From: a virus
Virus genome (UHGV): UHGV-1359168
Reading direction: 5' to 3' (one strand)
Length of the DNA stretch: 41,803 nt
Shown here: in pieces, positions 1 through 33,895 of the stretch
Position numbering within the stretch: position 1 is the stretch's first letter
How the letters are laid out: each line of letters opens with the position of its first letter
The notes under the pieces: model-generated
What the model was told of the DNA's origin: nothing
The model's input: only the letters and a program-made list of their open reading frames with translations
Database searches by the model: none
Translations under genes and position numbers: made by a program

Positions 1-763
1 GTTTAAACCGCACGGACGTCATCCACGCTGTACCCTCTCCGTTAGGGACATCACGCGGGTGTCTATACTCCAGCTTCTGCGGTATTATTTTATCTATGGC
101 TTGAGCTAATTCTGCTTCGGATAGTTGTTTGAGGTTGTTTATGTTCAGGATATAACCTAGCGTGCTGTGCGCCATTACTTCTGGGTTGTAGTCGCTCGCT
201 GTCGTTAGCGTGGTGGTTTCGCTCTGAACTAGCAGTTGTGCTTTCGCCGCGCACATATACAAATACGCCTTAACACCTAGCGGTATGCGCTTTTGAGGGA
301 GAGCTGTAAGCGGCGGCGTTAGTAGCGTCTTAGTGTGGTTCGCAGGCGTAGCTAGGTAAATTAGCGCATTATCTAGCTGGATATCTATGTTTGCACGCTT
401 GGCCCATTTACGTATCTGGGACAGCTCCTGCGCGTCCTCCTCGTTATAAGCGTAGAGTATGTGCCCACCTTTCAAGTCTGACTTAGCTATGTAGTCCGCC
501 GAGTAGTTATCTATGGTGAGCAGCTGCTCAAACATCTCTGTATTATCCACATCTATGCCGATAAAGTCGCGCCTCGCTATCGCGCAGAGTAGCGGAGTGT
601 TTTGGGTATTTCTGGTTGTGGTATATTGTAGCCACCCTTTTTGCGGGAAACCTGGGTCTGTTTTCTTGCCATCAGGCTTACGCTCCAGCGTTTGAGCTGT
701 AAGAGGGACTGTGTAAAATATGTCTGTATAGTTATGCACTGTGGCCACTTCTGTATTTGCCAT
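1..763 (-). CDS. Primase-polymerase (PrimPol) domain, N-terminal part of a primase/helicase. ATG at 763-761; the reading frame runs off the window start with no stop.
   Basis: Manual reverse-strand translation gives MANTEVATVHNYTDIFYTVPLTAQTLERKPDGKKTDPGFPQKGW...ARRDFIGIDVD...KGGHILYAYNEE... with no stop down to position 1. FIGIDVD (hhhDhD) and GGHILY (sGxH) are the PrimPol catalytic motifs I and II. The ORF track does not list it because it has no stop inside the window. Confidence 0.7.
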   Translation of the reverse strand, partial: MANTEVATVHNYTDIFYTVPLTAQTLERKPDGKKTDPGFPQKGWLQYTTTRNTQNTPLLCAIARRDFIGIDVDNTEMFEQLLTIDNYSADYIAKSDLKGGHILYAYNEEDAQELSQIRKWAKRANIDIQLDNALIYLATPANHTKTLLTPPLTALPQKRIPLGVKAYLYMCAAKAQLLVQSETTTLTTASDYNPEVMAHSTLGYILNINNLKQLSEAELAQAIDKIIPQKLEYRHPRDVPNGEGTAWMTSVRFK

Positions 764-771
764 AATGCCAC

Positions 772-1200
772 CTATTTACTTGCATTAACTATGGATTGTG
801 TATTATGTGCGGATTGCGATGGCGTCGGAACAGGCGGCAGCTCCTGCCCTATTTGTGAGCTATAGCTAACTATGTAGTCCTGGATTTCTTTAGGCAGGAG
901 CGAGAGCAGGTTAGTATCCTCAGATAGGGAGATTATATCCTCTAGGGCTGGAAGTATATCAATTTTATAATTTTTTAGATAGACGCTGTTTATCGTATCC
1001 ATTATCTTAGCGGTTGTATTTGTGTATAAAGCTAGGGCTGTGATATATTGCTTCAGGTTAGGATACAGCGCTTGTATATGCGCATTTTGTGGACGGGTGT
1101 TAAGTGCTCGTATTTTAAGCTGGCTCTGTTGGATATAAAAACATTTAGCCAGGGTTTCATCTTTAAAAGAGTGTTTAAGCTCTAAGAGGGTTAAGACCAT
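772..1200 (-). CDS. Hypothetical protein, 142 aa, immediately upstream of and translationally coupled to the PrimPol gene.
   Basis: ORF track entry. Its stop at 772 is 9 nt from the PrimPol ATG at 763. No recognisable motif. Confidence 0.5.
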   Translation of the reverse strand: MVLTLLELKHSFKDETLAKCFYIQQSQLKIRALNTRPQNAHIQALYPNLKQYITALALYTNTTAKIMDTINSVYLKNYKIDILPALEDIISLSEDTNLLSLLPKEIQDYIVSYSSQIGQELPPVPTPSQSAHNTQSIVNASK

Positions 1201-1619
1201 TTTTATTAAGCTCGCTTTCTATTCATTATTTACGTTATTATATCTAATTTATTCTTAAAATTAGATTAATTTTCTTTATTTTCTTTATTATTTATTTCTT
1301 AATATGGCAGAGGGCATTTAGATAGCTAACTAAGTGGGCTAAAGTTGGGTAAACTAGGTAGTAGCTGCTAGTTCTGGGACCCCGCTAGTTGGCGTGAGAT
1401 TTTTCTGGACGCTGTGAGATTTTCTTCAGGCGTGGGCGCGCGAGAACTCCCTAGGCGGTATTTATATTATGTAAAATAGTTGGTATTATGGTAAATCTGG
1501 ATAAGCGTGGAGCGGGATATGCTGTGATATTGATAATGATTCTCAGATTATAGCGTCGAAAAATTTTGATAGTTGATAATCATTATAGATTATCATAAAG
1601 CGATAATAATGATAAAAGC

Positions 1620-1900
1620 TTAAAAGTCAATAAATCACTATCAATAATAAAGCTAGTTGATAATCGTGTTTCAAATTGTTACAAATCAATAAATCAACTT
1701 TAAGATTGAGTTAAGAAAATAAATCAATAAATCAAGAAAAATCAAAAAATCAACATTTTCATTATTCGCTTATAATTCTAAAATATTTTAATACTTGATT
1801 TTTTAGATTTAATTGATTTATTTGATTTAAACTCGATTTATCAATAGTTTCGCGTAAATCACTAGCTAAAAATCGCTCGATTTTTTCGATTTATAACTTA
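1620..1900. repeat. Putative replication origin: direct AATAAATCA/AAATCAA iterons (about 1627-1754), an AT-rich spacer, then the same motif inverted (TGATTTAT, about 1796-1845) and short AAATCG/CGATTT palindromes.
   Basis: Read directly: caataaatca, caaatcaataaatcaac, aaataaatcaataaatcaagaaaaatcaaaaaatcaac, then ttgatttatttgatttaaactcgatttatcaatag. The region is non-coding and lies about 0.9 kb from the PrimPol/SF3 primase-helicase gene. Confidence 0.4.
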
Positions 1901-2099
1901 GTTTGCTTAGTTTTAGCTTAGACGCTTATAATGATAACGCTTATCAATAATTTTCTAGCTACACTAGATTTAGATTAAAGAATTAAGCGCAATTAAATTG
2001 CAATGATAGTTTTAAAAGCATTTGGGCGCGTTTTAAAGCATTTCAACGATATAGCAATATAATAGTATTAGCTCGCTATTGAATTGCATTTAAATTAAC

Positions 2100-2167
2100 G
2101 CTAGATGATTTTTAACGTTAGATGATTTTTAACGCTAGATGATTTTTATAGTTAGATGATTAGATAA
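2100..2167. repeat. Four tandem 17-bp direct repeats, (g/t)(c/t)tagatgatttttaac.
   Basis: gctagatgatttttaac gttagatgatttttaac gctagatgatttttata gttagatgattagataa. There are no spacers, so this is not a CRISPR array. Confidence 0.8.
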
Positions 2168-2350
2168 GTGTAAATTGATAATGATTATTAAATTAAATTT
2201 CATTGTATAGAAATGATTAAATTAAGTTTGATTATAATAATCATTATCGTTTAACATTGATTTAAAATATTTAACGTTTATTAATAATCGAAATAAAGCT
2301 ATCTAGCGTTGATTTTAAGAGTGTTTGAGTTTATAGAGTATATTTTATCG

Positions 2351-2392
2351 TTTGAAGTTTTAAAAGCGCGCTATCGAAGCGTTAGCGCGCTT
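2351..2392 (-). terminator. Putative rho-independent terminator after the 156-aa gene: 10-bp perfect stem aagcgcgcta/tagcgcgctt with a 9-nt loop, followed on the minus strand by TTTTAAAAC.
   Basis: The inverted repeat at 2364-2373/2383-2392 sits 10 nt downstream of the minus-strand stop at 2402. The U-run has only 4 T. Confidence 0.45.
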
Positions 2393-2401
2393 AGTTTTGA
2401 T

Positions 2402-2872
2402 TTATTCTTTATCGTCTGATTTATTTCTTTGTTTGCAATTTTCAAGATAATAAATTTTATCTTTTTCATAATCATACGTTGTCGAGTCGTGCATTAACGC
2501 TTTTTTCTCTTTGATTATATCTGCGAGCTTTGATATTTCGCTAGCGTCTGCGTTTGTTTGAATTAGATTTAATAAATCGTTTTCAAGACGCTTTACTTCA
2601 CTTCGTCTTTGATTAGATATAAAGCTCGCAGCGCGACAATAGCTTTTTTTCGCTATCATCTCGTCGTCGCGCTCAAAACGTTGATGATATTTGCAAAATC
2701 TCATCAAACATTGATTTTCATCGCTGTAATAATCTGCGTGCTTGACTTCTCGCGCTTTGCGAGTTGTTAGCTCTTGTAAAAGATTATCAAACTCTGATTT
2801 TGCACTTTTAGAGAGTTTAGCACTCTCAACTATTGAGTTTAATTTACTTACTAGCTCTGATTTACTTAACAT
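2402..2872 (-). CDS. Hypothetical early protein, 156 aa, with a Cys/His-rich central region (CLMRFCKYHQRF...SYC); possible zinc binding.
   Basis: ORF track entry. An AGAGAGA-type ribosome-binding site precedes the ATG (gaaaagagagataaaacaATG). Four tandem promoter copies lie upstream. Confidence 0.55.
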   Translation of the reverse strand: MLSKSELVSKLNSIVESAKLSKSAKSEFDNLLQELTTRKAREVKHADYYSDENQCLMRFCKYHQRFERDDEMIAKKSYCRAASFISNQRRSEVKRLENDLLNLIQTNADASEISKLADIIKEKKALMHDSTTYDYEKDKIYYLENCKQRNKSDDKE

Positions 2873-2940
2873 TGTTTTATCTCTCTTTTCTTATTAGATT
2901 TAGCAAAGATTATGCGCGCTTTAATCTTAGCTTTGATGAA

Positions 2941-3176
2941 ATTATATCATAAGTTTGCTTAAATTAAACTGAATTAAACTCGATATATTTTCATCAAAAC
3001 TAAATCTTGTTTTGATATTTAGCATTATAACATAATCTTACTTAAATTAAACTGAATTAAACTTAATCAGATTATGCGCTTTAGCGTAATTTGATATTAT
3101 AGCATAATTTTTCGATTTTGTCAAGTTGATAGCGATTATCAATTAGTGATAATATCGAAAAGCTTATATTATAACA
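2941..3176 (-). promoter_or_regulatory. Tandem array of four extended -10 promoter elements (TGnTATAAT on the minus strand) at 2941-2949, 3024-3032, 3096-3104 and 3168-3176, spaced 72-83 bp apart, all directed at the 2872 gene.
   Basis: Plus-strand attatatca / attataaca / attatagca / attataaca read on the minus strand as TGATATAAT / TGTTATAAT / TGCTATAAT / TGTTATAAT. Three copies are followed on the plus strand by a cttaaattaaactgaattaaac-like motif. Confidence 0.45.
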
Positions 3177-3443
3177 TAAGTTTGCTTAAAGTTTGCTTAA
3201 AGAACATTAATCTAAATCAAGCGCAATTAAGTTTAATTTATTGCGCTTTGTTTAAATTAAATCTCGTTGATTAGATAGAGATTATCTAATTCTCTATCAA
3301 GTTTTAACATTTTGATAACGTTTCGCTTTTAACGATAGCTTCATCGTTGAAACGTTATCGTTTAAATATTTCTCTAAAAATAGAAACTCTTTTATTTTAT
3401 AGTGCATTTGCGCGCTGTCTAGCATTTCGTTATATTCTTTTAA

Positions 3444-3588
3444 AAGTCGCTCGAGTGAATTAAATCATATTCAAAAACTTGATTTAATTCATCAAGAATA
3501 TTAAATAATTCTAGCTTTTCAATAGCTAACTTATATTTTAGAGCGTAAAAAGTTTGCTCAAACTGATTATATCTGTCGTAATTCATTG
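3444..3588 (-). CDS. Small hypothetical protein, 48 aa (MNYDRYNQFEQTFYALKYKLAIEKLELFNILDELNQVFEYDLIHSSDF).
   Basis: Manual translation. It uses the same AGAGAGA-type ribosome-binding site as the two neighbouring minus-strand genes (gagagagataaaacaATG). It is below the length cutoff of the ORF track. Confidence 0.4.
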
Positions 3589-3622
3589 TTTTATCTCTCT
3601 CTTTACTTAAATTAAGTTGAAT

Positions 3623-3928
3623 TTAGATGATATATTCTAATATTTCATCTAAATAAACGCTTTTAAATTCTTTGCTTATATTTTCTTTGATTTCATTTAA
3701 ATCTAATTCGTCAATCTGATAATAATGCGCGATTTTAATCATAATCGCATTTATCAAATATAATCTATCTTGAATATCGCGTAATGCTTTTTCTGCTTCT
3801 TGATATTCAACAAATATAAAAGACTGATTAGCAAAATCAATCATCTTTTGATTATATTCGCGAATAAACTTATTATTTAGTTTATTCAACTTCAAAAACG
3901 CATTTAGATATTTATCATCATCTAGCAT
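3623..3928 (-). CDS. Hypothetical early protein, 101 aa.
   Basis: ORF track entry. AGAGAGAGA ribosome-binding site. An extended -10 element (TGATATAAT on the minus strand) at 3963-3971 lies 35 bp upstream. Confidence 0.55.
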   Translation of the reverse strand: MLDDDKYLNAFLKLNKLNNKFIREYNQKMIDFANQSFIFVEYQEAEKALRDIQDRLYLINAIMIKIAHYYQIDELDLNEIKENISKEFKSVYLDEILEYII

Positions 3929-3962
3929 TTTATTTTTTCTCTCTCTTTTGATTTATGATAGA

Positions 3963-3990
3963 ATTATATCATCAATTTACTTAAATTAAA
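3963..3990 (-). promoter_or_regulatory. Extended -10 promoter (TGATATAAT on the minus strand) with the cttaaattaaactgaattaaa upstream motif, driving the 3928 gene.
   Basis: Plus-strand attatatcatcaatttacttaaattaaactgaattaaat. Same element family as 2941-3176. Confidence 0.45.
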
Positions 3991-4135
3991 CTGAATTAAA
4001 TAACATTTGTAAAAATATTTTCAAGCTAGAAAAATCGCTTATATAATATGTTACGCGAATAGCATAATTTTGCTTAAGAAACGCTTAAATTGCAACATTA
4101 TCAAATAGACTTAATTATGATAGTGACGTAGATTA

Positions 4136-4270
4136 TAATAATCGTTATCAATAAGCGTTTCACGTGAAACTTAAGTGCTAAAATGCGATGTGGCAGATTG
4201 CGTTTCAAGCTAGACGTTAAATTAAATTAAATATAATAATCGTTATCAATAAGCGTTTCACGTGAAACTT
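4136..4270. repeat. Two perfect 38-bp direct repeats (4136-4173 and 4233-4270), ataataatcgttatcaataagcgtttcacgtgaaactt, each containing the 14-bp perfect palindrome gtttcacgtgaaac.
   Basis: Read directly. The repeats lie about 400-550 bp upstream of the TerS start, so they are candidate operator or pac-type protein-binding sites. Confidence 0.8.
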
Positions 4271-4682
4271 TGCGAGATGTGTTGAAAATATCGAGATTAT
4301 TTTGGTAAGGTCTGGAAATTTGGAGTGGGTGCGACAAAGCGATGCGAGAGTTTACGCCGACAGAACACTCCAAAATCCGCAACTCCATTTCGGAATTATT
4401 ATTCAATTAAATCTAATTCAACGGAATAATAACCTAATTCAACGAAATATAACCCATTTTCACGGACGCACCACTCCAAATCTAACAGCTTGTAATCTAT
4501 ATCACAAAATAATAAAAATTTTCACGAAATTATTATTCAATTAACTTTAATTGCAACATAATTTTAATTAAACTTAATAGAATATCAACTACGGCCTGCA
4601 AACTCTAGTTATCATTAGCTCACATAAGCAAAGCTTAAGTTAAACTTAGCTATACTTACAGAAAAACCATAAAGGAGTATCC

Positions 4683-5147
4683 GTGGCTAAAGCACCGAAA
4701 CCGGTCCCAGTCGCACTCTTAAACCTTATAAAGTTAGAGTATGAAGCAGGGTCGGAGATAGAAACAGTATTAGATAAGTATAAAGTTACGAGGGAGCAGA
4801 TTGGAGAGCCTGAGTGGCTTACTAGACCTAGAGTTACGGTCTTGCCGGCATCTCAGCAACCGCTAGCGCCTGCTGTAGTTACTATAGCTCCTCCAGCACA
4901 AGAAGCACAGGAGCAGGACGAGAGTGTAACCCGCGTGCTAGAGAAAATTAGTTCGTTCAAGGAGAAGGCGGTTGACTATGCCCTAGATATGATGTCGATG
5001 GTTGGGGATACTAAGGAGCTTAAAGACCTAATAAGTTCGGTCACAGCGATAGAGGCGACTTACAAAGACTTGAGGCCTAAGGATAATACTCCGGTCATAA
5101 ACATAGCTATACAGAATTTGGTGGATAGGTTCCGTGATGATTGCTGA
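4683..5147 (+). CDS. Putative terminase small subunit, 154 aa.
   Basis: Strong ribosome-binding site (taaaggagtatccGTG). It directly precedes and overlaps the large terminase gene. Size and position are typical of TerS; there is no motif-level support. Confidence 0.4.
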   Translation: MAKAPKPVPVALLNLIKLEYEAGSEIETVLDKYKVTREQIGEPEWLTRPRVTVLPASQQPLAPAVVTIAPPAQEAQEQDESVTRVLEKISSFKEKAVDYALDMMSMVGDTKELKDLISSVTAIEATYKDLRPKDNTPVINIAIQNLVDRFRDDC

Positions 5148-6735
5148 GGATAAGAACGACGAGCTGAAGTCGAGGGAGCTTACAGAACAGTATTCGGCGG
5201 CGCAGACATCGCTCACGCAGGAGCAGCAGGAGTTTATGGACAGTAAGCTCGGGTCTAAGTTGTGGAGAATGAATAATCTCTATACAATACGGGATAAGAA
5301 CGGCGTTAAGAGGATATTGACACTAAATCACAGCCAGAATAAGGTGCTTACGCAGTTTAAACACAACCGCAAAATAATACTCAAGAGTAGGCAGCAGGGT
5401 ATATCGACGCTATTTCTGGCATATTACCTAGATGACTGCCTGTTTAAGCCAGGGTTTCAGGCAGGTATCCAGAGCTACGGTCAGGACGAGGCTGAAAAGC
5501 TGTCGGATAGGGCGCTGTTGATGTGGGAGGACTTAGACCCTGACATAAAGACACTACTCAACCTAAAGTTAGTGGCGAATAACTCGAAGCGTATGATGTT
5601 TAGCAACGGTTCTATCCTCAAGATAGGTAACTTCCGTGGGGATACACTCCAGGGATTACACGTGTCCGAGCTAGGTAAGATAGCTAAGAAATACCCTGAT
5701 AAGGCGAAAGAGCTTAAAACGGGTGCGTTCCAGGCTGTAGGTAATGATAATAAGATAACTATTGAGAGCACAGCAGAGGGTCGCAACGGGCTATTTTATG
5801 AGATGTGGCTTAAAGCGTATAATAAGTCGAAACTATCGCGCGACCTCAACCAGCTTGAGTTTCAGGCGGTATTTCTCAGCTGGGTGGAGGACCCGGACTG
5901 TAACCTTAGTTCAAAAGTAGATATAAATGCAGCGATGTTGGAGTATTTTACTAAGGTTGAGCAGGAGTATGGCATAACACTAACTAACTCACAGAAGTGG
6001 TGGTATGCGTCTAAGTATGAAGAGCTAGGATACGAGATAAAGCAGGAGTATCCGACGACACCCGAAGAAGCATTCGAGCAGTCGCTAGAGGGTTCTATCT
6101 ACAAGAAAGAGTATGACGCCTTATATTTGTCAAAGAGAGTGCTCCCTAGTTTACACTATCACGGAGTGCCTGTAATGGTCAGCTACGATATAGGTGTTAA
6201 TGACGAGACGGTGCTAGTTTTCTCACAGGTTGTGGATGGTGTCCCTAGGGTTATAGACTGCTACGCAGCGAGCGGGGAAAATTTAGAGCACTATGTTGAG
6301 GTTATGTGGGCACTTAAACGCGATAAAGGGTATAACATACAAGATGTAGTTCTCCCGCACGATGCGATGGTAAGGGAGTTTAGCACCGGTAAAACTAGAT
6401 TAGAGAAGTTTCTGGAGCTTGGAGTGCCTGCTCGCGTGTTAAAGCGCATAAGCATAGATGATGGGATAAGTGCTACAAGGGATTTTCTGAACGTTGCGCT
6501 GATAGATGATAGTTGCGAAACCCTACTACTAGCTTTGCAGCAATACCACTGGAAGTTTGACACTAGATTAGGTGTATCGCTACGCACTCCAGAGCACGAT
6601 TGGACTTCTAACTATATGGATAGCCTGCGCTATACAGCGATAGCGGCGAATTATACCAAAAAAGAGCTCGTAGCAGATGACGAGATGGGCTACCCTGATG
6701 ATTATTACCAAGAGGACGAGTATTCAGGGCTTTAA
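5134..6735 (+). CDS. terL: Terminase large subunit, 533 aa.
   Basis: ATPase motif ILKSRQQGISTLFLAYYL (Terminase_6-type KxRQxGxS Walker A) and a C-terminal RNaseH-like nuclease region (VSYDIGVNDETVLVF... with Asp residues). Confidence 0.85.
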   Translation: MMIAEDKNDELKSRELTEQYSAAQTSLTQEQQEFMDSKLGSKLWRMNNLYTIRDKNGVKRILTLNHSQNKVLTQFKHNRKIILKSRQQGISTLFLAYYLDDCLFKPGFQAGIQSYGQDEAEKLSDRALLMWEDLDPDIKTLLNLKLVANNSKRMMFSNGSILKIGNFRGDTLQGLHVSELGKIAKKYPDKAKELKTGAFQAVGNDNKITIESTAEGRNGLFYEMWLKAYNKSKLSRDLNQLEFQAVFLSWVEDPDCNLSSKVDINAAMLEYFTKVEQEYGITLTNSQKWWYASKYEELGYEIKQEYPTTPEEAFEQSLEGSIYKKEYDALYLSKRVLPSLHYHGVPVMVSYDIGVNDETVLVFSQVVDGVPRVIDCYAASGENLEHYVEVMWALKRDKGYNIQDVVLPHDAMVREFSTGKTRLEKFLELGVPARVLKRISIDDGISATRDFLNVALIDDSCETLLLALQQYHWKFDTRLGVSLRTPEHDWTSNYMDSLRYTAIAANYTKKELVADDEMGYPDDYYQEDEYSGL

Positions 6736-6794
6736 GCTTAGTTTAAGTTGAAATATGCTATACTTACGATAAAATACTATAGAAAGGGCTACAA

Positions 6795-7550
6795 ATGGGT
6801 GAAAATGGTAATCCAGAACAGGACGTTAAAACTCCTGATACACTAGATACTGCTACCAGCACAGGAGATAGGGACTACGACGTTTCTAATTTCCTTAAGA
6901 ATATTGAGGAGAATATGCCAAAAGACGCTGACGCGGTAGAATACTACAAGAATAAGTTAATTGAGGCAGAAAAGAGGAGACGTGGCACTGTCGCAGGCTT
7001 CACTAAAAGCCAACAGCAGTTGAAAGCTGTGGAAGCTCAAGCTTCATTTTTGCGGGATAAGGTTGCAGCGCAGATAAAGCTTACACCTGAGCAACAGGAA
7101 GAGCTAGATACTCTGAAACTAACAGACCCAGACCAATGGCGCACTAAGATTGACGCCTATGAGGTATCTGCTAAGAAGCAGTTTGAGGACAGCATAGTTA
7201 AGGAGTTAGAGCGCATAAAGAGCCTAAGCGCAGAGGAGTTTGAGAGGGAGAGATTGGCAGAGCAGCTTAAGGAATTTATTACCGCTAATCCTGAACTTAA
7301 TCTTACAAAGGACGAAATCGCAGACCAAATTCCTCCTTTGTATATGAAAAGGCTAGCACGGGGAGAGATTTCTTTCGAGGAGTTTTTAGGTTTGACTAAG
7401 AAATTCCTAACGGCTCCAGAAAAAACATTAGCTAGGGAAGTGCCTTCAGCAAACGGCACAAATATTAGCGGTGTTAGAGGGTCAAGCAATGCTCCTGCTA
7501 AAGCAGAGGTGTCCAATATATTGGATAATGAGAAAACTATAACGTTCTAA
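6795..7550 (+). CDS. Putative scaffolding protein, 251 aa: acidic and coiled-coil-rich.
   Basis: Position between TerL and the capsid-like gene. Composition is rich in E/K/Q with heptad-like stretches. Assignment is by position only. Confidence 0.35.
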   Translation: MGENGNPEQDVKTPDTLDTATSTGDRDYDVSNFLKNIEENMPKDADAVEYYKNKLIEAEKRRRGTVAGFTKSQQQLKAVEAQASFLRDKVAAQIKLTPEQQEELDTLKLTDPDQWRTKIDAYEVSAKKQFEDSIVKELERIKSLSAEEFERERLAEQLKEFITANPELNLTKDEIADQIPPLYMKRLARGEISFEEFLGLTKKFLTAPEKTLAREVPSANGTNISGVRGSSNAPAKAEVSNILDNEKTITF

Positions 7551-7561
7551 AAGGAATTAAA

Positions 7562-8719
7562 ATGGCAAAACAAAGCACAGGTATCCTTCGATACGGCAAC
7601 GCGCTTGAGCGCAAAGGCTGGATGGTCGAGGGTATGATACAAAAAGCCTCCGAGAGTTTCTGGAGAGGCTTAACAGGCAATAGCCACGACGCAATTATCT
7701 ATCAGAAAAACGATTTCAGCGCAAAAGTAGGTCATAACATCATATTTGACTACAGCGGCAACCTAGCAACTGCCGGCTTTAGAGGTAAAGAGCAGGCGTT
7801 CGGTAACAGCCCAGCGAAAATGAAGTTCAGCGATAGCTTGACCCTAGAGTTTGGACGTTATACTGTAGATAACGGTATGGAGTTCGACGCAGAGGCTATA
7901 GGTGATATTGACCTAAGCACGCACGCAGATAGCCGCGAGAAACTAGCGGACAACTTCGTAAGGGCTAAAGACCAGATGTTCTTTGACTTGGGTCAAGGTT
8001 ATCTAAGAGGACAAGCTCCATCTCACATAATCAGACCTAACGGCAGAGCTAATATAGGTGCGCTTACAGCAGGTGATAAACTTAGCTGGGATTTCCTAGT
8101 TCAGCTAGAAACTACTATCAAAACAGGTATAGGTTACACAGTAGGTAGCCGCAGAAGCCCAATGAAACCGTTTAAATTGGCGGATGGTCGCAAAGTTTGG
8201 TTGCTAGTTCTTGACGCGTTCCAGATTGCTGACTTGCTAGAGGATGAAAAATTCCAGAGAATTTATCAGCACGCTGAAGTTCGCGGTATAGATAACGCGC
8301 TAATTAGCCACAACGTAACACAAGTTGGCTCATTTGTGATTGTAGAGGCTAGCACATTTGCAGGTATGTCTATAAATAACAAACTATTTAAAACAGCGGT
8401 TGAAATCCAAGGACTTCGCACAATCGACGAGCACGGCGTATTTAGCGGAACAGGTAAAGCACATACAGGTAAGGTTGCATCTCGCGGCTTAGTTCTAGGT
8501 GCTGGAGCGTTCCAACTAGGTATGGGCCATACTCCAGACTATAAATTCCAAGAGAGCCAAGACTTTGGTATTACTAGCGAGAGTGCGGTATTGCTTACAA
8601 TGCAGGCTGATAAATGCCGTCTAACAGCAGAAACTGAGGACTATAAAGAGGCCAAAGTAGCTAATATGGACTATTCAGTGGCTGTTATAGATACATTTAA
8701 CGCTAAACTTAGCAATTAA
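7562..8719 (+). CDS. Putative major capsid protein, 385 aa.
   Basis: Strong ribosome-binding site (aaaggaattaaaATG). Size and position after the scaffold-like gene are typical of HK97-fold major capsid proteins. I did not recognise a definitive motif. Confidence 0.5.
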   Translation: MAKQSTGILRYGNALERKGWMVEGMIQKASESFWRGLTGNSHDAIIYQKNDFSAKVGHNIIFDYSGNLATAGFRGKEQAFGNSPAKMKFSDSLTLEFGRYTVDNGMEFDAEAIGDIDLSTHADSREKLADNFVRAKDQMFFDLGQGYLRGQAPSHIIRPNGRANIGALTAGDKLSWDFLVQLETTIKTGIGYTVGSRRSPMKPFKLADGRKVWLLVLDAFQIADLLEDEKFQRIYQHAEVRGIDNALISHNVTQVGSFVIVEASTFAGMSINNKLFKTAVEIQGLRTIDEHGVFSGTGKAHTGKVASRGLVLGAGAFQLGMGHTPDYKFQESQDFGITSESAVLLTMQADKCRLTAETEDYKEAKVANMDYSVAVIDTFNAKLSN

Positions 8720-8732
8720 GAAAGGATAATAA

Positions 8733-9143
8733 ATGGCTAAAACTGTAGATATTTCTCAATATCTTGGGAACAATAAAAAGAATATCGTTGCTTCGGCTGT
8801 TGGCACGGTTAAAATTGCCGCCTTAAAAGAAGCGGGCGTAGCTACCGGGGATAAGATAGTTCTTACTAAAATCCCTGCTAACTCTTTGATTACTGGTGTT
8901 ACGCTAGTAGTTAAAGAGGGTGCTACAGGCGGTAACGTGAACCTTGACGTAAATGGGGCTTCAGTAGCGTTCGATATGGGCACTGCTGGAGTAACAACAC
9001 AAGCTAGTTGGGTTCCTACCGTAACTAAAGACCTTGTAGAAGTTACAGGCGATGTAACTATGGGCGCTAGTAAAGTAGGAGAGGGCTGCGTTGTTATACA
9101 CTTCGTAGAGCTTGAGGGCTATACTGGAACCTTTGTAGGTTAA
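8733..9143 (+). CDS. Small Gly/Thr/Val-rich structural protein, 136 aa; possible capsid decoration or head fiber.
   Basis: Ribosome-binding site aagaaaggataataaATG. The composition is beta-rich (GVTLVVKEGATGGNVNLDVNGASV). It sits immediately after the capsid-like gene. Confidence 0.3.
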   Translation: MAKTVDISQYLGNNKKNIVASAVGTVKIAALKEAGVATGDKIVLTKIPANSLITGVTLVVKEGATGGNVNLDVNGASVAFDMGTAGVTTQASWVPTVTKDLVEVTGDVTMGASKVGEGCVVIHFVELEGYTGTFVG

Positions 9144-9156
9144 AACGGAGCGAGCG

Positions 9157-10014
9157 ATGTTAGTATCTAGTTTAATTTCTAGCGTTAGGTATAGGGTTGG
9201 TGATGTCCCTAATACAAAATTTACTGATGTTCGGATAATCGAGCTAATTAACGAGGGACTAGATGACCTCGCTCGCAAGGTTAATATAAATAAGGGAGAG
9301 TTAGTTCTCCCTATAGTTCCATATCAACGTAAATTAGTAATACCAGACCCTGATTTCATTAAACTACTAAGAGTTAGATGTAATAACAGGCCTGTAGATG
9401 TAAAGTCATTTAGTTCGATGGACAAACTTCCTGAATGGGAAGAAGAGGTTGGCACACAACTTAAATCTGTTGTGTATAATCTTAATAATCCACGAGATTT
9501 AACTCTATACCCTCTGCTTGAGGAGCCAGTATATACAAACTACCGACAACTAAATAACTTTATTTCTAGTGATGGAACTTATGGCATAGCCATAGATATC
9601 CCAGGTATAACTAGGGATAATCTCGACGGTATAATCACAGGACTTAAAGTCGATAATAACTTACAAATTATTTATATCCCTAACGGTATGCAGCCTAACG
9701 GAACAATGACATCTATGGCTGATGGATTTAATCTACTAGATATTAAGTATGTTAAAAGACCTAAGGCTGTTGTAAATAAAAGTGATAATATCGACCTAGA
9801 TGATATGTTTAAAACGGCATTAGTTTATTACATTTCAGGTATGTTATTGCTTGACGATACTCGTGGAGAAAATATCAATAAGGGTATGTTGTTTATAAAC
9901 AAGTATAAGACGGAGTTGGAGAATATCCAGGAGCACGAAAAGAATAGTTTTCAAGATATAGCTACTCACGTAGTGCATTACAGAACAGGATTTGGAGACG
10001 AATATGGCATCTAA
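9157..10014 (+). CDS. Structural protein of unknown function, 285 aa.
   Basis: ORF track entry. Its start follows the stop of the previous gene by 14 nt. No motif recognised. Confidence 0.45.
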
Positions 10015-12028
10015 CATAAAAGAAATTTATGTAAATAAATTAACTTTGGAGGATATGGAGATAGGAGTAGGGTCTGTAGTTCAGACTCGTGGTGGTGTTC
10101 AAGTAACTCGCACAAAGATTAACGCTCAAAATTTTCCATATGATAGCACCCAAACTTTAGGACAGCGTTTAAATAGCGTTCAAGCTGATTTAGCTAAGGC
10201 AGAGCAATTAATAAATCAATTAGCTAATAACAACAATGAGGCTAAAACTATTAAGCGCGATGTAGAGGCTCTTAAAAACGAGATTTCGTCTAAGGTTGCT
10301 AGTGCAATTCAAACGCTAGATGAATTACAAGGAATAAAAGCCACAGTTCAAGGCAAAGTAAATGAGGCTAATCAAGCGGCTAATAGAGCTAATACAGCTG
10401 CTACCCAAGCCAGCACTACACTTACGTCTGTTAATAAGGTTTTGACAGATGTTAATACTTTACACGAGCAAGTAAAAGCTGTAAAAGCTCAAATAGATAC
10501 TGCTCTACAAGATATAGATAATGCTGTTAAGCAAGGAGAGCAGTTAAATAGCAAAATAGCAGAGGCTAAGGCTCAATTTGATGATATAGCGGCTAAATTA
10601 ACATTAGCTCAAGCAACAATAGCTGAAATTAAAAAAGCTAGTGAGGACGCTATAGCAGCTAAGGATAAAGCACTAGAGTCGGAGCGTAAGGTCAAAGAAT
10701 ACTGGGAAGCGGCAGAACAACGTAGGGCTGAATGGATGTCAATGACAAAAGGTCCTAAAGGTGATACTGGACCTCAAGGACCTGCAGGCATTCAAGGGCC
10801 AGTAGGTCCTACGGGTCCAGCCGGACAATCGGGAGCAGTAGGACCGATTGGTCCACGTGGTCCTCAAGGTCCTGCGGGTAATACTGGACCACAAGGTCCT
10901 AAAGGTGATAAAGGTTCTGGAGGTGTTTCAGGCTACACCAACAAGTCTGCATTTCCAACTACAGGAGATGCTAGCACTATATATTTAGATAAAAGCACAT
11001 ATAAAGTTTATAGTTGGGATGGTGCTAATTATGTGTTATTAAAAGCAGGAGAAAGCGCAACTACTACCGTAGAAGGGTTTGTAAAACTATCAGGCTCTGT
11101 AACTAGCGATGATGAAACCGTAGCTGCAACCGCTAGAGCCGTTAGTATAGCTTATAAAGAAGCTGAAAAAGCACTAAATACAGCTAACGCTAAATACACT
11201 CCTCAATATGCTACTACCGGACAATGGGGATTAACAACCTTAGTTGATGGGGTTAATGACTCCAGGACTGATAGAGCAGCTACTCCTAATGCGGTAAAAC
11301 AAGCTTATGATAGGGCTATCGCAGCTTATACTTTAGCTAATAGTAAATGGTCTGCGGTATCTGCTAGTTCATCAACTGCTGGTATAACTAAGATTATAGA
11401 TAGCACTAGCTCAACAGATAGGTATAATGCAGCTAGTGCATACGCTGTAAAACAAGCCTATGATAAAGCAGTTCAAGCACTTAATGCAGGTAGTGATGCC
11501 CAAACATTAAGAGGGTATGCTCCTAATATTAACGCATCGGCTAATACCATAGTTCTTAGAGATAGCTCGGCTAATATATTTGCAGCAGGGGCTGTTTTTA
11601 GCTCTTTATTTGTTTCTAGACATAATGATGACTCCGGATTTTCGGCTAACCCTGAAATAGCGTATTTTTCAGGTAATCAGATTAAAGGAGTTAGTTACGC
11701 TAAGTTTAGTAATGCACTTAACTTAAATGCTTTTATGAGATTAAATGGCAGAAATACTCCTAAAATATATATAAGGGAAAGCGGTAGCCCTTCCATAGAT
11801 ATGTCCATAGCTGATAACGCGTTAATTACAATAACGAGTAACGGGATTTTAACATTATCGAATGTTGAATTAGGTCAAAATGGTATCATAGTTATAGTAG
11901 GAGCAGAGAAAATAACTGGATTTCATAGCGATTTAAAATTTAGACAAGTTCCTACAGGCTTACAAAATATAGAAACATTTGCATATTTTAAATGCAATAA
12001 TGGCTATATATCTATGGGACGTGCGTAA
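10004..12028 (+). CDS. Tail fiber or other structural protein with an N-terminal coiled coil and a collagen-like Gly-X-Y triple-helix segment (about 60 residues, near nt 10750-10925).
   Basis: [58 protein letters not shown] read directly. The most likely start is the ATG at 10004, which follows GGAG at 9994-9997; the track's TTG at 9992 is less likely. Confidence 0.7.
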
Positions 12029-12552
12029 TGAACGGGTCATTTATGATTGGGTGTGGAGGAAGTTACACACCTCAATACGAAGTTAGAGATAGTATATCTT
12101 TCGGTAACATAGGTAGCACAGAGCAAGTATTCAGATATGGTTTCAAGCCTGAATGGATAGGTCGTAATATAAGAGCTTTTAATATCTGGATGGCTGTAAG
12201 ATTTCACCAAGACTCTAATCAATGGATTAAAAATTGGAATTTAAGAGATGGTATGCCAAGATCGGCTTTAAAAAATCCACCCTACGAGCTTATGCTAGCT
12301 GACGCTATTCCTGCAGGTGGTCTTGATACTAATTCAGTTTATGGATTTCAAAATGTTAGCAGAAATAGTAAATTTTGGCTATGGGAATGGGTAGATGATG
12401 ATGGGATTATAAGCAGGAATAAGTTTAGAGCCCAAGCTAGTAAGTATATGCGCTTTCAGTGTATTCTAAATTGGGACGCAACTCAAAATTTTATCGAGTT
12501 TAGAGTTAAAGACATTGATATTTTAAACATTGGCTGGCAGCCGATATTCTAA
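12028..12552 (+). CDS. Hypothetical protein, 174 aa; possible distal fiber or fiber-assembly component.
   Basis: Its ATG overlaps the fiber gene stop (TAATG). Confidence 0.5.
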   Translation: MNGSFMIGCGGSYTPQYEVRDSISFGNIGSTEQVFRYGFKPEWIGRNIRAFNIWMAVRFHQDSNQWIKNWNLRDGMPRSALKNPPYELMLADAIPAGGLDTNSVYGFQNVSRNSKFWLWEWVDDDGIISRNKFRAQASKYMRFQCILNWDATQNFIEFRVKDIDILNIGWQPIF

Positions 12553-12562
12553 GGAGTTATTA

Positions 12563-13069
12563 ATGAAATTATACAATTTGCAAACTAAGGTTGTAGAGGA
12601 CGTAGATATTATAGTCCTTAAAAACGGTAATCAGATATTCCCTCACGTATTCACAGATGAAGGGCTTATAGAAAATGGGTATAAGCGTGTGGTTGAAACG
12701 TATCCAGATGGACAAGCTCCAAAAGAAACTGAATATTTGGATAAAGAATATTCAGAGGACGCTACAACATATACTGTAAAGTATGTCATTAAACCTTTAC
12801 CATTACATTTGCTACAAGAGGAATTTAAGAAGTATGTGCAAGCTATTCTTGATGATAAAGCTAAGGAAAAAGGATATGATAACATAGTTTCTGCTTGCAG
12901 TTATGCTGGATATGATAACGAGTTCCGACAAGAGGGAGAAGTGTTCGGTAAATGGAGAGCTCGTGTATGGTCTTGGGGATTTAAAATGCTAGCTGATATA
13001 CAAGCAGGTAAAAGAGAGATACCTAAAACATTTAAAGAAGCTGTGGCTGATATGCCTGCATTTGAATAA
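12563..13069 (+). CDS. Hypothetical protein, about 169 aa.
   Basis: The track start at 12530 lacks a ribosome-binding site. The ATG at 12563 is preceded by AAGGAG (aaggagttattaATG), so the start was moved. Confidence 0.5.
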   Translation: MKLYNLQTKVVEDVDIIVLKNGNQIFPHVFTDEGLIENGYKRVVETYPDGQAPKETEYLDKEYSEDATTYTVKYVIKPLPLHLLQEEFKKYVQAILDDKAKEKGYDNIVSACSYAGYDNEFRQEGEVFGKWRARVWSWGFKMLADIQAGKREIPKTFKEAVADMPAFE

Positions 13070-13075
13070 GGAGAA

Positions 13076-13513
13076 ATGATGTGGAAATTAGCATTAGGGT
13101 TTATATCTAGTAATAAAGGCATAATGATAATTACAGCATTATTTTTTGGCTTATATACAGGAGCCTTAGCTAGCCAGGCTATACAAATACATAGTTTAAA
13201 TAAAGAAGTTAAAAGCCTTAATGAGGATATAGCTCAAACAATAGTTAAAAAAGAGTTGATTAAATACGAAATAGAGAAATGCCGTGAGGTAGTTAAACAG
13301 CAAAACTCTGCGATAGAAAAATCTAAGGTAGATTTATCTAATCTTGAAAAAGAAAAGGATAAAATAGTTCGCAAGTTTAATAAGATAAGATTGCCAGACC
13401 CAGCTAGTTGTGCGTCTAAGCTTGATTACTATGAAAACCTATTTAGAGGATTAAGTAGTGAAAGGATAGAAAATGAAAACAGAAGCTTACAAGATACAAC
13501 AAGCAAAAGATAA
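13076..13513 (+). CDS. Putative i-spanin (Rz-like), 145 aa: an N-terminal transmembrane helix followed by a periplasmic coiled coil.
   Basis: IMIITALFFGLYTGALA transmembrane segment, then a charged coiled-coil-like region. It is adjacent to and overlaps the lipoprotein gene. Confidence 0.5.
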   Translation: MMWKLALGFISSNKGIMIITALFFGLYTGALASQAIQIHSLNKEVKSLNEDIAQTIVKKELIKYEIEKCREVVKQQNSAIEKSKVDLSNLEKEKDKIVRKFNKIRLPDPASCASKLDYYENLFRGLSSERIENENRSLQDTTSKR

Positions 13514-13763
13514 AGAAATGAGGGCTTTTATTTTCATAATTTTAGTAACTGTAATAGTTTTACTAGGTGGTTGTGCTAATAAGCCTGAAATTATAACTAA
13601 GGTGGAATATCAAGAAAAAGTTATTCCTGTTAAATGTAACGCTACAATTCCAGAGAAGCCTTTTTATGACCCCTCTGACTTGCAAAGTGCAAAAGATTTA
13701 AGTATATATTATTCCAGGGTAGAGGCAACATTGAAAGGGTGTATTGATGGAGTGGTTAAATAG
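13473..13763 (+). CDS. Putative o-spanin (Rz1-like outer-membrane lipoprotein).
   Basis: Signal peptide with a lipobox, FIFIILVTVIVLLGG|C, then a short Cys- and Pro-containing mature region. An alternative start at 13518 (MRAF...) gives a canonical short n-region. It overlaps the 3' end of the i-spanin gene. Confidence 0.5.
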   Translation: MKTEAYKIQQAKDKEMRAFIFIILVTVIVLLGGCANKPEIITKVEYQEKVIPVKCNATIPEKPFYDPSDLQSAKDLSIYYSRVEATLKGCIDGVVK

Positions 13764-14103
13764 TTTAGATAGCTATCTAGGTAAATACAAATGGGTTCTG
13801 GCAATCGGACTTATTGGTGGATTACTTAATGTAGGTTCTAGACCTGATAAAAGCGTAGGTAGAAAAGTGGTGGATTTACTCCTTGGTATAGCATCGTCTG
13901 TATTTTTCGGGTGGATTAGCTACGAAATAATTTTGTTTATTTGGAAAGAGAATGGAGTAGCCTTAGCAGGCTGTGGATTTTTTGCCTGGAAAGGTGCCAC
14001 TTGGTTTGGTGAAAAATTCGATAAATTTGTGGATGCTAAGATAGAAGCAACTAAAAGAAAAGGAGATTATTATGGCGAATGTGATAGCGACAGACCTCTC
14101 TAA
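13744..14103 (+). CDS. Holin candidate, 119 aa, with about three hydrophobic helices and a charged C-terminal tail.
   Basis: Helices WVLAIGLIGGLLNV, VVDLLLGIASSVFFGWISYEIILFIW and VALAGCGFFAW, followed by a KRKGDYYGECDSDRPL tail. Located in the lysis cassette. Confidence 0.4.
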   Translation: MMEWLNSLDSYLGKYKWVLAIGLIGGLLNVGSRPDKSVGRKVVDLLLGIASSVFFGWISYEIILFIWKENGVALAGCGFFAWKGATWFGEKFDKFVDAKIEATKRKGDYYGECDSDRPL

Positions 14104-14257
14104 TAAAGAGATATTAGCTAAACTGGAGAATAAACGCACTAAGTGTGTAGTTTATACACGTGTTATGGGTTACCATAGGCCTGTTGAAAGCTTTAACATA
14201 GGTAAAACAGGAGAGCACAGAGAGCGCGTTAAATTTGTAGAGAAAGGCATAAAATGA
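14072..14257 (+). CDS. 61-aa protein resembling the C-terminal glycyl-radical segment of anaerobic ribonucleotide reductase NrdD.
   Basis: YTRVMGYHRPVESFNIGKTGEHRERVKF set against the NrdD C-terminus as I recall it, RRVCGYLGSPDARPFNAGKQEEVKRRVKH: shared pattern RVxGY..P...FNxGK..E...RVK. Strong ribosome-binding site (aaggagattattATG). Confidence 0.5.
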   Translation: MANVIATDLSNKEILAKLENKRTKCVVYTRVMGYHRPVESFNIGKTGEHRERVKFVEKGIK

Positions 14258-14673
14258 AACTAAGAATTGATAGGTTTATGGATATAAACGACGGAACTAT
14301 AGGTAAGTTTTATGTTGTTGGCGATGATGGCGTTAAAATAATGTCTGGATTTAGCTTAGAGCCTGCAGGCCCTGATACTACAACACCCAACAAAGATAGA
14401 CGTATACCGCAAGGCTTGTATAATTTAGATTGGACTCCTAGCCCTAAATATAATGGTAAGCTAATGCCTACACTTCATAATGAGCTAGTTTCTAAATCTA
14501 GGCGTATTCTTATACACCAAGGAAATTATCCTATAGATACCGAAGGGTGTATTTTACTAGGAGATAGTTATGATAATAAAGGTGTTTATAACAGCGTTAA
14601 AACTTTAGCTAAAGTTTTTTCGCTGATTAAAGATAAGAAAACAGTTGTAGAGATTAACAACCTGGAGAAATAA
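14254..14673 (+). CDS. Endolysin candidate, 139 aa, with an L,D-transpeptidase (YkuD)-like catalytic signature.
   Basis: ILIHQGNYPIDTEGCILLG (His ... Gly-Cys-Ile) resembles the YkuD HxnGC(I/V)R motif. Its position is right after the spanin/holin genes. No lysozyme, amidase or CHAP motif is present. The assignment is tentative. Confidence 0.3.
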   Translation: MKLRIDRFMDINDGTIGKFYVVGDDGVKIMSGFSLEPAGPDTTTPNKDRRIPQGLYNLDWTPSPKYNGKLMPTLHNELVSKSRRILIHQGNYPIDTEGCILLGDSYDNKGVYNSVKTLAKVFSLIKDKKTVVEINNLEK

Positions 14674-17994: not shown

Positions 17995-18017
17995 CTTTAA
18001 ACAAAGTTATGTTATAA

Positions 18018-18026
18018 TACAATTAA
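18018..18026 (+). promoter_or_regulatory. Internal plus-strand extended -10 promoter (TGTTATAAT) 26 bp upstream of the 18052 gene.
   Basis: aagttaTGTTATAATacaattaaac read directly on the plus strand. It has the same core as the minus-strand promoter family. Confidence 0.4.
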
Positions 18027-18051
18027 ACTAAAACAATGGAGGCGTAAAATT

Positions 18052-18708: not shown

Positions 18709-18718
18709 AGGATAATTA

Positions 18719-22137: not shown

Positions 22138-22146
22138 GGATAAATA

Positions 22147-30430: not shown

Positions 30431-30489
30431 TTCTGCTCCTTTGAATTGTTTTTAATTAAATTTTTCTCTTTAATTACGTTTATTATAAC

Positions 30490-30530
30490 ATAATCTTACT
30501 TAACTTTAACTTAATTTAATATTAAAGTTT
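30490..30530 (-). promoter_or_regulatory. Extended -10 promoter (TGTTATAAT on the minus strand, 30498-30490) with the upstream ttaag/gtttaa-type motif, serving the HTH/MazG/small-ORF operon.
   Basis: Plus strand: attataacataatcttacttaactttaacttaatttaat. Confidence 0.4.
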
Positions 30531-33841: not shown

Positions 33842-33895
33842 TAATTATCTCCTTTCTTGATAATGTATTTATTATCTCTCTTTATTTATACGAAT

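Follow-up and report, generated by a model that had tools for sequence, protein, structure and literature searches.

A predicted early-transcription and candidate replication-control region with iterons and Fur-consensus palindromes in a podovirus-like phage lineage

The P4 alpha protein binds direct and inverted octamers. The primase-helicase of phage NrS-1 requires a specific 8-nucleotide (nt) template site that occurs once per strand and has been proposed as its origin (PMC7102993). Sigma-70 promoters of Campylobacter jejuni have the form TGxTATAAT, with periodic A/T stretches upstream instead of a -35 box (PMC3656092). The Fur regulator has been characterised well in C. jejuni (PMC5940780), the core of its binding site in Helicobacter pylori is TAATAATnATTATTA (PMC3950669), and the Fur boxes reported on phages in the literature searched are single sites on the cargo genes of temperate phages only (stx1; sitABCD; PMC6969025, PMC10042803). 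Here we describe positions 1201-4682 of the virus genome UHGV-1359168 ("the region"; "the window" is the whole stretch of 41,803 bp analysed). Predicted promoters of the Campylobacter type, iterons close to the gene for an NrS-1-like primase-helicase and palindromes that match the Fur consensus occur together in this region. We interpret it as the early-transcription and replication-control module of a virulent, host-RNA-polymerase-dependent podovirus-like phage, a reading held with slightly better than even confidence.

The window is a complete, circularly permuted, podovirus-like phage genome because one open reading frame (ORF) spans its ends: the 783-amino-acid (aa) primase-helicase ORF occupies 763 down to 1 on the minus strand and then 41803 down to 40215. 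The region has a G+C (GC) content of 0.28 compared to 0.385 in the rest of the genome and forms the divergent junction between a leftward early and replication arm and a rightward structural operon. The plus-strand arm (4683-24492) begins with terS, which is presumed by position and has no family match, and continues with TerL, scaffold/capsid, adaptor, tail fibre, internal virion protein and portal genes. The minus-strand arm, which runs from 1200 round to 24499, encodes a 142-aa protein, the primase-helicase, a Dda-like helicase, a gp2.5-like single-strand DNA-binding protein, DNA polymerase, an exonuclease, ThyX-like and nucleoside deoxyribosyltransferase-like proteins, an HD-type dNTPase, MazG, a ligase and an Hjc-like resolvase. 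Searches for an RNA polymerase, an integrase and a CI-type repressor found none of them, and the phage therefore looks virulent and reliant on the host RNA polymerase. The region was compared with 12 distinct genomes of the same clade and with the sister lineages L013/L080 and L056, whose TerL is 70-73% identical. The null for motif counts was a set of dinucleotide-preserving shuffles of the region itself, which is fair for AT-rich DNA.

Predicted promoters, Fur-like palindromes and iterons at a divergent junction

The extended -10 motif TGnTATAAT (TGNTATAAT) occurs five times in the region, always on the minus strand, against a shuffle mean of 0.73. Four stacked copies (2941-2949, 3024-3032, 3096-3104, 3168-3176) stand before the gene for p156, a 156-aa early protein, and are kept in relatives. 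The fifth, P1 (TGATATAAT, 3963-3971), precedes the early gene p101 and is accompanied by an upstream element, TTTAATTCAGTTTAATTTAAG, and a leader, ATAAATCAAAAGAGAGAGA. The promoter at 3096 matches the consensus at 12 of 12 positions with TG and has a consensus TTGACA at 3119-3124; the other four are without a -35 box. TTTAAG lies 11 nt ahead of the -10 hexamer in four of the five, three of the five share TTTAATTCAGTTTAATTTAAG, and the leader motif AAAGAGAGA is found just before the start codon of all three early genes (six occurrences versus 0.48 expected). All five fit the Campylobacter sigma-70 type in having an extended -10, and each is oriented toward an early gene, so that leftward promoter activity is predicted. 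The same class (TTAAG-N11-TATAAT, usually with TG) and its leader ATAAATAAAGAGAGA recur in intergenic DNA at 30482 and 38167 (minus) and 18010 (plus), with close variants near 33900 and 40170 (minus); this is therefore the general host-type promoter of the phage, and it is densest in the region.

Three further blocks have promoter-like features. The minus-strand block at 1201-1292 has TATAAT at 1237-1242 with A-tract repeats upstream and would serve as promoter and leader of the replication operon, in which the 142-aa gene is followed by the primase-helicase gene. Its identity to the window across the 12 relatives is 0.88, compared to 0.72 for the whole spacer to which it belongs. A near-invariant block at 4018-4090 combines a plus-strand TTTTCA-18-TATAAT (4018-4047) with a degenerate copy of the early promoter (4059-4089), and positions 4044-4090 hardly vary in a 15-genome alignment. 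The plus-strand block at 2041-2094 (conservation 0.85) contains AGCAATATAATAGTATTAGC (2053-2072) with TATAAT at 2058 and is a possible rightward promoter.

An earlier note on this DNA, which was made from the letters without database searches, had described an AT-rich control region with four tandem promoter copies in an otherwise tightly packed genome. The region is indeed compositionally distinct and is the divergent control region of the genome, with stacked early promoters, and the seven structures listed in the note (iterons, reiterated gataat(c/g)attat motifs, 17-bp tandem repeats, four tandem promoter copies, a nested palindrome, inverted and direct repeats on the right, and a GC-rich island) are all present at or within a few bases of the positions given for them. 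What the note missed is the identity of the gataat(c/g)attat motif, which is the Fur 7-1-7 consensus TGATAATnATTATCA; the consensus of its sites agrees with that of Fur at all 14 specified positions. With at most two mismatches, TGATAATNATTATCA occurs nine times in the region versus 0.17 expected (0/500 shuffles), and the other 38 kb of the genome hold one Fur-like site only. The classical 19-mer GATAATGATAATCATTATC has four sites with at most three mismatches versus 0.01 expected; matches are 17/19 at 2230 and 16/19 at 1526 and at 4131. The sites at 1932, 3127, 4136 and 4234 lie beyond the two places at which the motif had been noticed. The region also holds 14 perfect inverted repeats (arm of at least 9 nt, loop of at most 45 nt), and no more than seven were present in any of 200 shuffles.

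The Fur-like sites are clustered from the p156 terminator to the replication-operon promoters and in a hub between the early promoters and terS. Sites A (1526-1545), B (1571-1588) and B2 (1596-1615) form a cluster at 1526-1615 that overlaps minus-strand TATAAT hexamers at 1547-1552 and 1582-1587. Site C, TGATAACGCTTATCA (1927-1950), reads TGATAATCGTTATCA in a second sub-clade. Sites D1 (2173-2192) and D2 (2229-2250) contain a 14-nt perfect inverted pair (2173-2250), and site E (3127-3141) abuts the TTGACA -35 element of the promoter at 3096. Sites F (4131-4150) and G (4229-4248) lie in two perfect 39-nt direct repeats on the plus strand (4134-4172 and 4232-4270, within 4131-4270), each of which has a TATAAT, a Fur-like box and the palindrome GTTTCACGTGAAAC (4157-4170 and 4255-4268). 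Each of sites A, B, C, D2, F and G either overlaps a TATAAT hexamer, a predicted -10 element, or comes immediately after one. Conservation of boxes A, B, B2 and D2 is 0.83-0.94 (0.86 for D2), and D1 is in a stretch prone to insertions and deletions. The sub-clade of the window has one to three copies of the 39-nt repeats, and the second sub-clade has degenerate versions of them. Sub-clades differ in the centre of the sites but retain the half-sites, a pattern that a dimeric binder would produce, and TAATAAT, which is the Fur core in H. pylori, forms the left half of many sites. The sister lineages have six (L013, versus 0.13 expected) and seven (L056) Fur-like sites, including box pairs or triplets equivalent to F and G, and 20 lineages with a TerL identity of 38-57% have none or one and are without an AT-rich, gene-poor region.

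In all 13 genomes, the spacer between the replication operon and the p156 terminator (1201-2401) is free of ORFs that reach 40 aa, and its conservation is patterned, with blocks of 0.85-1.00 amid a background of 0.6-0.7. The motif AAATCAA has 18 copies in the region versus 2.7 expected, a count reached by none of 300 local dinucleotide shuffles, and six direct and three inverted cores are placed within 150 bp. The six direct cores (1681-1754, plus strand) repeat with a period of 8-10 nt in two groups, 1683-1697 and 1721-1753. They are conserved at 0.96-1.00 in the 12 relatives, which is the highest value among the non-coding bases of the spacer. The first iteron copy of the earlier note (1628-1638) is not conserved in relatives. 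The inverted set (1795-1845, minus strand) consists of TTGATTT at 1795, 1813 and 1822 and GATTTAT at 1835-1841, and its core at 1805-1830 is invariant in relatives. A related element, GATTTTTTCGATTTAT (1879-1894), is outside the inverted set. Between the two sets is an AT-rich spacer (1755-1794), a candidate DNA-unwinding element, whose sequence varies among relatives and stays T-rich. The 40 bp at 1771-1810 are the fourth least stable duplex of that length in the genome (-38.4 versus a mean of -50.5 kcal/mol). An integration host factor site (WATCAANNNNTTR) in the iterons was considered and showed no fit by inspection.

The order of elements is the same in the window and in L013 and L056. In plus-strand coordinates it is promoter block, direct repeats, spacer, inverted repeats, tandem array, palindromes, terminator and p156 homologue. 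The iterons of both sister lineages are ATAAGT(A/G), with five direct and several inverted copies in the layout of the window. The primase-helicase is 26% identical between the window and L013 (the L056 gene is off its contig) and 92% identical within the clade in which the iterons are invariant. Iteron sequence thus changes along with primase-helicase divergence, as expected for initiator sites, in the one pair that can be compared. The enzyme matches DUF5906 over residues 471-586 (E = 2.8e-10), and its best Protein Data Bank (PDB) match is the NrS-1 phage helicase domain (6k9e, E = 2e-6). The earlier label of PrimPol-superfamily 3 (SF3) helicase is borne out for the SF3/DUF5906 core; residues 16-621 match PHROG 19785, "DNA polymerase/primase" (E = 1.6e-47), Pfam gave no primase domain, and residues ~680-783 gave no family match. 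The direct and inverted iterons facing each other across an AT-rich spacer are a real layout, in the best-conserved non-coding DNA, and an origin role as proposed in the earlier note is plausible. We rate the chance that the AAATCAA iterons and the easily melted spacer act as a replication origin as about even; such an origin would fit recognition by the neighbouring NrS-1-like primase-helicase.

A proposed programme and its rivals

In the reading that we favour, the host is probably an oral Campylobacter, and the hub at ~3960-4090 and the four stacked extended -10 promoters would fire on DNA entry to drive three short, separately terminated units: p101, a decaying 162-aa gene and p156. Past the p156 terminator there would follow 1.15 kb without an ORF of 40 aa or more, made up of a variable tandem array and then the putative origin. 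The primase-helicase encoded downstream would recognise the AAATCAA iterons and start synthesis both ways; P4 alpha at ori/crr and the NrS-1 site are the models for this proposal. The nine Fur-consensus palindromes on or beside the -10 elements of the replication operon and the divergent hub would bind a dimeric regulator that determines when, or under which conditions, middle and late transcription occur. This binder may be host Fur, in which case iron would be coupled to phage development, or it may be a phage protein that is conserved, for example p156. The rightmost 550 bp, with a GC-rich core, repeated modules and an invariant weak promoter before terS, would probably serve late transcription and possibly packaging or genome ends.

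As the binder of the palindromes, host Fur or a Fur-family protein is a tentative candidate, argued for by the agreement with the 7-1-7 consensus and the 19-mer, and it is somewhat doubtful that a virulent Campylobacter phage lineage carries six to nine genuine host Fur operators at its replication-operon promoters and early/late hub. Several observations weigh against Fur. The symmetrised consensus TGATAAT[C/G]ATTATCA, drawn from 22 site variants across all the lineages, is partly circular in that several sites were found with that pattern, Fur half-sites look like -10 hexamers so that promoter-likeness may inflate the match, and an unbiased but underpowered scan for exact half-site palindromes placed Fur-like halves among the top without their being outstanding after multiple testing. 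The conserved p156 or the XRE-type protein of the phage could also be the true binder. We consider it possible, at about the same level as Fur, that the TGATAATnATTATCA palindromes are operators of such a phage regulator, which would close the early promoters or open the middle and late ones, their likeness to Fur boxes being convergent or incidental; phage switches usually employ their own dimeric repressors (textbook). As the binder, p156 on its own is no better than a doubtful candidate. It is encoded in all three box-bearing lineages behind, in the window, four stacked promoters, its Cys60, His63 and Cys79 are invariant, and in L027 it is the sole gene called between terS and the replication operon. 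On the other hand, its homologues in L013 and L056 are only ~26% identical although the box consensus of the lineages is identical, no Pfam or PHROG match was found, and its AlphaFold2 model (mean predicted local distance difference test score 71) has no recognisable DNA-binding fold, with nothing below E = 1 in a Foldseek search of the PDB. The XRE-type protein is an improbable binder. In the genome, this 82-aa helix-turn-helix protein (30182-30430, minus strand; Pfam HTH_3, 23.4 bits) stands alone as a recognisable transcription regulator. Its gene is preceded by an early-type promoter of its own, and conservation within the clade is 95-99%, but the protein was not detected on the L013 contig by a search that finds close relatives only. 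A phage regulator would in either form have to account for a site consensus identical to that of Fur at all 14 positions.

Similar care applies to the iterons. The AAATCAA repeats could instead be phased A-tract DNA, either curved or acting as an upstream promoter element, or transcription-factor sites for the replication-operon promoters, with replication starting elsewhere, for example at another AT-rich intergenic promoter (compare the T7 primary origin) or at the genome ends. The repeats are 300-550 bp upstream of the replication-operon promoters and adjoin -10-like hexamers, and the spacer is not the single least stable site, since 33859-33958, 36121-36180 and 38094-38193 are equally unstable. 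The GC-skew check that had been suggested for locating the origin does not single out the iterons: the skew tracks gene orientation, which confounds it as a locator, and it turns over a broad stretch (~39.5 kb to 1 kb). These points weigh against an origin. We nevertheless consider the non-origin alternative rather unlikely, because three lineages retain the direct and inverted layout although the repeat sequence of the window clade is not that of the two sister lineages, because the change alongside a 26% identical primase-helicase in the one comparable pair fits initiator sites and not generic curved DNA, and because the repeats are the most conserved non-coding bases. An alternative that is compatible with the proposed programme elsewhere, and to which we also give a low probability, places the physical genome ends and a packaging signal at ~4100-4640 of a linear genome whose terminal repeat was collapsed in a circular assembly; the early promoters would then lie just inside the first-entering end, as in T7. 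The GC-rich core shared even with L013, the variable-copy modules and perfect 39-nt repeats before terS, and the linear GenBank record of the distant phage VPMS1, which ends ~180 nt past its first early gene, are in keeping with such ends. However, contig ends of relatives fall in repeats or arbitrary places, no conserved hairpin was found, and the deposited VPMS1 ends may be arbitrary. It is very improbable that the non-coding DNA is largely decayed early genes and its repeats functionless mutational debris. One early gene is visibly decaying, distant relatives hold 9-20 small genes at the equivalent position, and some relatives do without the 17-bp array or part of the GC island, but the spacer has kept its strongly conserved blocks without any ORF of 40 aa in 13 genomes and an ordered architecture recurs in three lineages.

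Early genes, terminators, flanking repeats and the probable host

The region contains three early units (p101, the 162-aa gene and p156), each with its own promoter and terminator and one of them decaying in the window. The earlier description of the region as nearly non-coding is therefore too simple, and ORF-free DNA amounts to ~2.4 kb instead of the ~1.9 kb estimated. Two of the three minus-strand genes that had been called, p156 (2402-2872) and p101 (3623-3928), stand. The middle one is an ORF at 3440-3586 that represents the 5' stump of the decayed 162-aa gene, whose remnant extends over 3297-3586 (minus strand) by tblastn and alignment to the relatives L010 and L008. Relatives have an intact 162/163-aa gene with its own TGTTATAAT promoter over the equivalent of 3262-3620 (7889-8445 in L010, 3724-4270 in L008), and in the window the promoter is lost, a 1-nt frameshift is present near 3437 and an internal deletion of ~150 nt has occurred at ~3310. 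The nested palindrome of the earlier note lies inside this ex-coding remnant. Its perfect 11-nt arms (3314-3324 and 3349-3359) are real and do not exceed chance, as 25% of shuffles yield an arm of this length.

Early gene content is highly fluid. p101 is replaced or absent in several relatives, L027 is without both p101 and the 162-aa gene, and p156 is the one universal early protein, with 54 homologue clusters at 68% identity or more, all on phage-sized contigs. It is probably made in large amounts.

The p156 unit ends at T3 (2362-2394, minus strand), in which a stem of 2364-2373 with 2383-2392 is followed by UUUUAAAA. RNAalifold gave -15.4 kcal/mol for this 10-bp hairpin and U run (UUUU), with three compensatory pairs and none broken among 11 distinct sequences. 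Its identity to the window is 0.88 across relatives, and it is terminator-like on the plus strand too. The terminator after the 162-aa gene, T2 (3219-3248, minus strand), pairs AAGCGCAAT with ATTGCGCTT, and the L008 group has the compensatory pair AAGAGCAAT with ATTGCTCTT. The covariation makes the prediction of T2 and T3 as intrinsic terminators well supported. Two other ORFs were rejected as genes: 4302-4544 (80 aa) has stop codons in relatives, and the minus-strand 4227-4406 is truncated in L008.

At 2095-2161, Tandem Repeats Finder (TRF) identified the 17-bp array that had been read as four tandem repeats (period 17, unit TTAACGCTAGATGATTT, 3.9 copies, 90% matches). Its identity to the window is 0.59 and its copy number varies from absent (L026) to at least eight (L024); arrays are found at the matching relative position in the sister lineages with units of 24 bp (seven copies, L013) and 47 bp (three to four copies, L056). 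The GC-richer island (1300-1470) contains the duplicated gtgagattttc motif that had been reported earlier, in the form of GAGATTT(T)TC(TGGA) copies at 1394-1405 (GTGAGATTTTTC) and 1414-1424 (GTGAGATTTTC), with a third, degenerate copy at ~1367-1380. Conservation of the island is low (0.58), and ~64 nt around 1393-1457 are absent from L010. The suggestion that the island encodes a noncoding RNA did not hold: no Rfam hit was obtained at E values up to 1, RNAalifold energies were near zero (-4.6 and -2.2 kcal/mol) with weak covariation, and single-sequence z-scores were +0.26 and -0.34. The island also has TGGCA-N-GGCA at 1304-1316, and a sigma-54 reading of this TGGCAG..GGCA element was set aside by inspection for its wrong spacing.

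In the right-hand part, a GC-rich core (4327-4366, GGGTGCGACAAAGCG...CGACAGAAC) is flanked by the inverted repeat TTTGGAGTG / CACTCCAAA within 4317-4480. The inverted and direct repeats noticed earlier are located here, with arms at 4319-4327 and 4366-4374 and a direct copy at 4457-4480. The core is conserved in the 15-genome alignment and common to L013 (GGGCGACAAAAG), and the modules that come after it (4391-4418, 4413-4454 and 4457-4480) vary in copy number. A conserved hairpin at 4317-4374 is weakly supported by RNAalifold (-4.9 kcal/mol), and a structured RNA at this position was rejected for its near-zero energy and weak covariation. The stretch at 4317-4480 is a candidate packaging or terminal element. 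The final block (4500-4682, plus strand) is almost 100% conserved and ends with the Shine-Dalgarno sequence AAAGGAG (4671-4677) of terS. It contains a promoter-like sequence, TTAAGTTAAACTTAGCTATACT (4635-4656), with the TTAAG-N11 spacing of the early promoters but a weak TATACT and no TG, which may act as a promoter. The right-hand part as a whole probably serves late transcription, and perhaps packaging or genome ends. In L056, ~400 bp at 2940-3360 have a GC content of 12-19% and degenerate 17-bp TATTAAATAATAA-type repeats; they are placed between the early promoters and terS.

No tRNA or tmRNA is present in the whole window, and Rfam gave no match on the whole window or, at a permissive threshold, on the region. 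A megablast of positions 1-8000 against GenBank phages returned no close relative. The closest cultured relatives are Kafunavirus KF-1, Vibrio phage VPMS1, Pseudoalteromonas phage PH1 and Dickeya phage Amaethon, with ~40% identity in TerL and 23-26% in the primase-helicase. Near-complete relatives of 40-42 kb are numerous in IMG/VR and other public assemblies, and several of them carry Human Microbiome Project (HMP)-style sample ids (7000000xxx).

The host was approached through several features of the genome. A DUF5675 protein (14254-14673) has its sole named bacterial homologues in prophages of Campylobacter majalis and C. curvus (52-54% identity); these homologues (loci L044, L045 and L046) belong to Mu-like and P2-like prophages and are encoded beside lysis-type genes. 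Ribosome-binding sites of the phage are of the AAGGA type. Several short palindromes are nearly absent from the 41.8 kb (CATG 0, GTAC 2, GATC 3 and GANTC 15, where base composition predicts ~145 each), and TGCA, ACGT, TCGA and GCGC are not avoided. This avoidance suggests a host rich in the corresponding restriction systems, and it is a pattern of Helicobacter and Campylobacter. Together with the promoter type, these features point with moderate confidence to Campylobacter as the host. A TerL search across 185,000 genomes gave no match, and tblastn with the tail fibre found collagen-like repeats only. To our knowledge, few podoviruses are known for Campylobacter.

Two other parts of the window stand out. 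A 220-nt GC-rich intergenic stretch at 37263-37482 (minus strand), between the ORFs 37483-38085 and 37029-37262 and upstream of the genes for the single-strand-binding protein and polymerase, has a folding energy of -92.5 kcal/mol, and its shuffles have one of -54.7 (z = -8.6). With a stem of ~22 bp and U runs after it, this stretch is a very strong terminator or other structured element. A nucleotide-metabolism cluster (29626-32464) encodes a MazG-like pyrophosphatase, an HD-type enzyme that matches the PHROG dATP triphosphohydrolase, a nucleoside 2-deoxyribosyltransferase-like protein and a ThyX-like protein, and may signify altered deoxynucleoside triphosphate pools or a modified base. A Z-genome was considered from the dATPase and MazG genes and dropped, as no candidate of PurZ size is present among the annotated ORFs.

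Significance and comparison with known systems

The region provides a testable map of predicted promoters, terminators and a candidate origin for a lineage that recurs in metagenomes (the 54 p156 clusters) and of which no member has been cultured. Iterons paired with a primase-helicase, and the natural "specificity swap" in the sister lineages, offer a simple system for the study of how NrS-1-like enzymes find an origin. The stacked, consensus-like promoters and predicted terminators could serve as parts in Campylobacter genetics. If host Fur does bind the palindromes, a lytic phage would wire its core programme to the iron sensor of its host or sequester that sensor. The lytic programme might then be gated by host iron status, or alternatively the genome, on reaching high copy number, might titrate Fur off the chromosome in a natural Fur titration assay, with derepression of host iron uptake, including possible receptor proteins. 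Such binding would bear on phage therapy and on the ecology of iron-limited mucosal niches.

Short direct and inverted repeats near the gene for a fused primase and SF3-type helicase (DUF5906, the P4-family C-terminal region) recall P4 ori/crr and alpha. The window phage differs from P4 in its N-terminal domain, which is of the NrS-1 / PHROG 19785 type, in its AT-only 8-9-mer iterons in place of TGTTCACC with no second crr-like site seen, and in having its own family A-like DNA polymerase, gp2.5-like single-strand DNA-binding protein and Dda helicase. NrS-1, which infects Epsilonproteobacteria, supplies the best PDB sequence match; the similarity is remote and limited to the helicase part, and the window phage has at least nine site copies rather than one per strand. 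The stacked host-RNA-polymerase promoters, the small early genes and an AT-rich element near the promoters resemble the T7 early region with its A1, A2 and A3 promoters, and the strong structured element at 37263-37482 resembles the T7 terminator TE further downstream. Unlike T7, the window phage is without a phage RNA polymerase, is organised in two convergent arms and not on one strand, has promoters of the Campylobacter extended -10 type and has an iteron-based origin candidate. KF-1, VPMS1, PH1 and Amaethon share the replication gene order of early genes, primase-helicase and Dda helicase. VPMS1 and PH1 carry 9-20 small early genes in place of the long AT-rich spacer, and KF-1 and Amaethon were rejected as architectural models because their gene layout around terL differs. 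The AT-rich, gene-poor region and the box cluster are missing from the 20 uncultivated lineages with 38-57% TerL identity that the box scan covered.

The region is thus of a known kind, a phage early-gene, origin and regulatory module, and is distinctive for its long patterned spacer, its iterons that swap with the replication module and its conserved battery of Fur-consensus operators. The Fur-box match is its most distinctive feature. The palindromes resemble bacterial Fur boxes in their 7-1-7 and 19-bp consensus, in overlapping or abutting -10 elements and in the TAATAAT variant that is the H. pylori core. The Fur boxes known from phages are single and belong to accessory genes of temperate phages, whereas the lineage described here would have six to nine such boxes in the core control region of a virulent phage.

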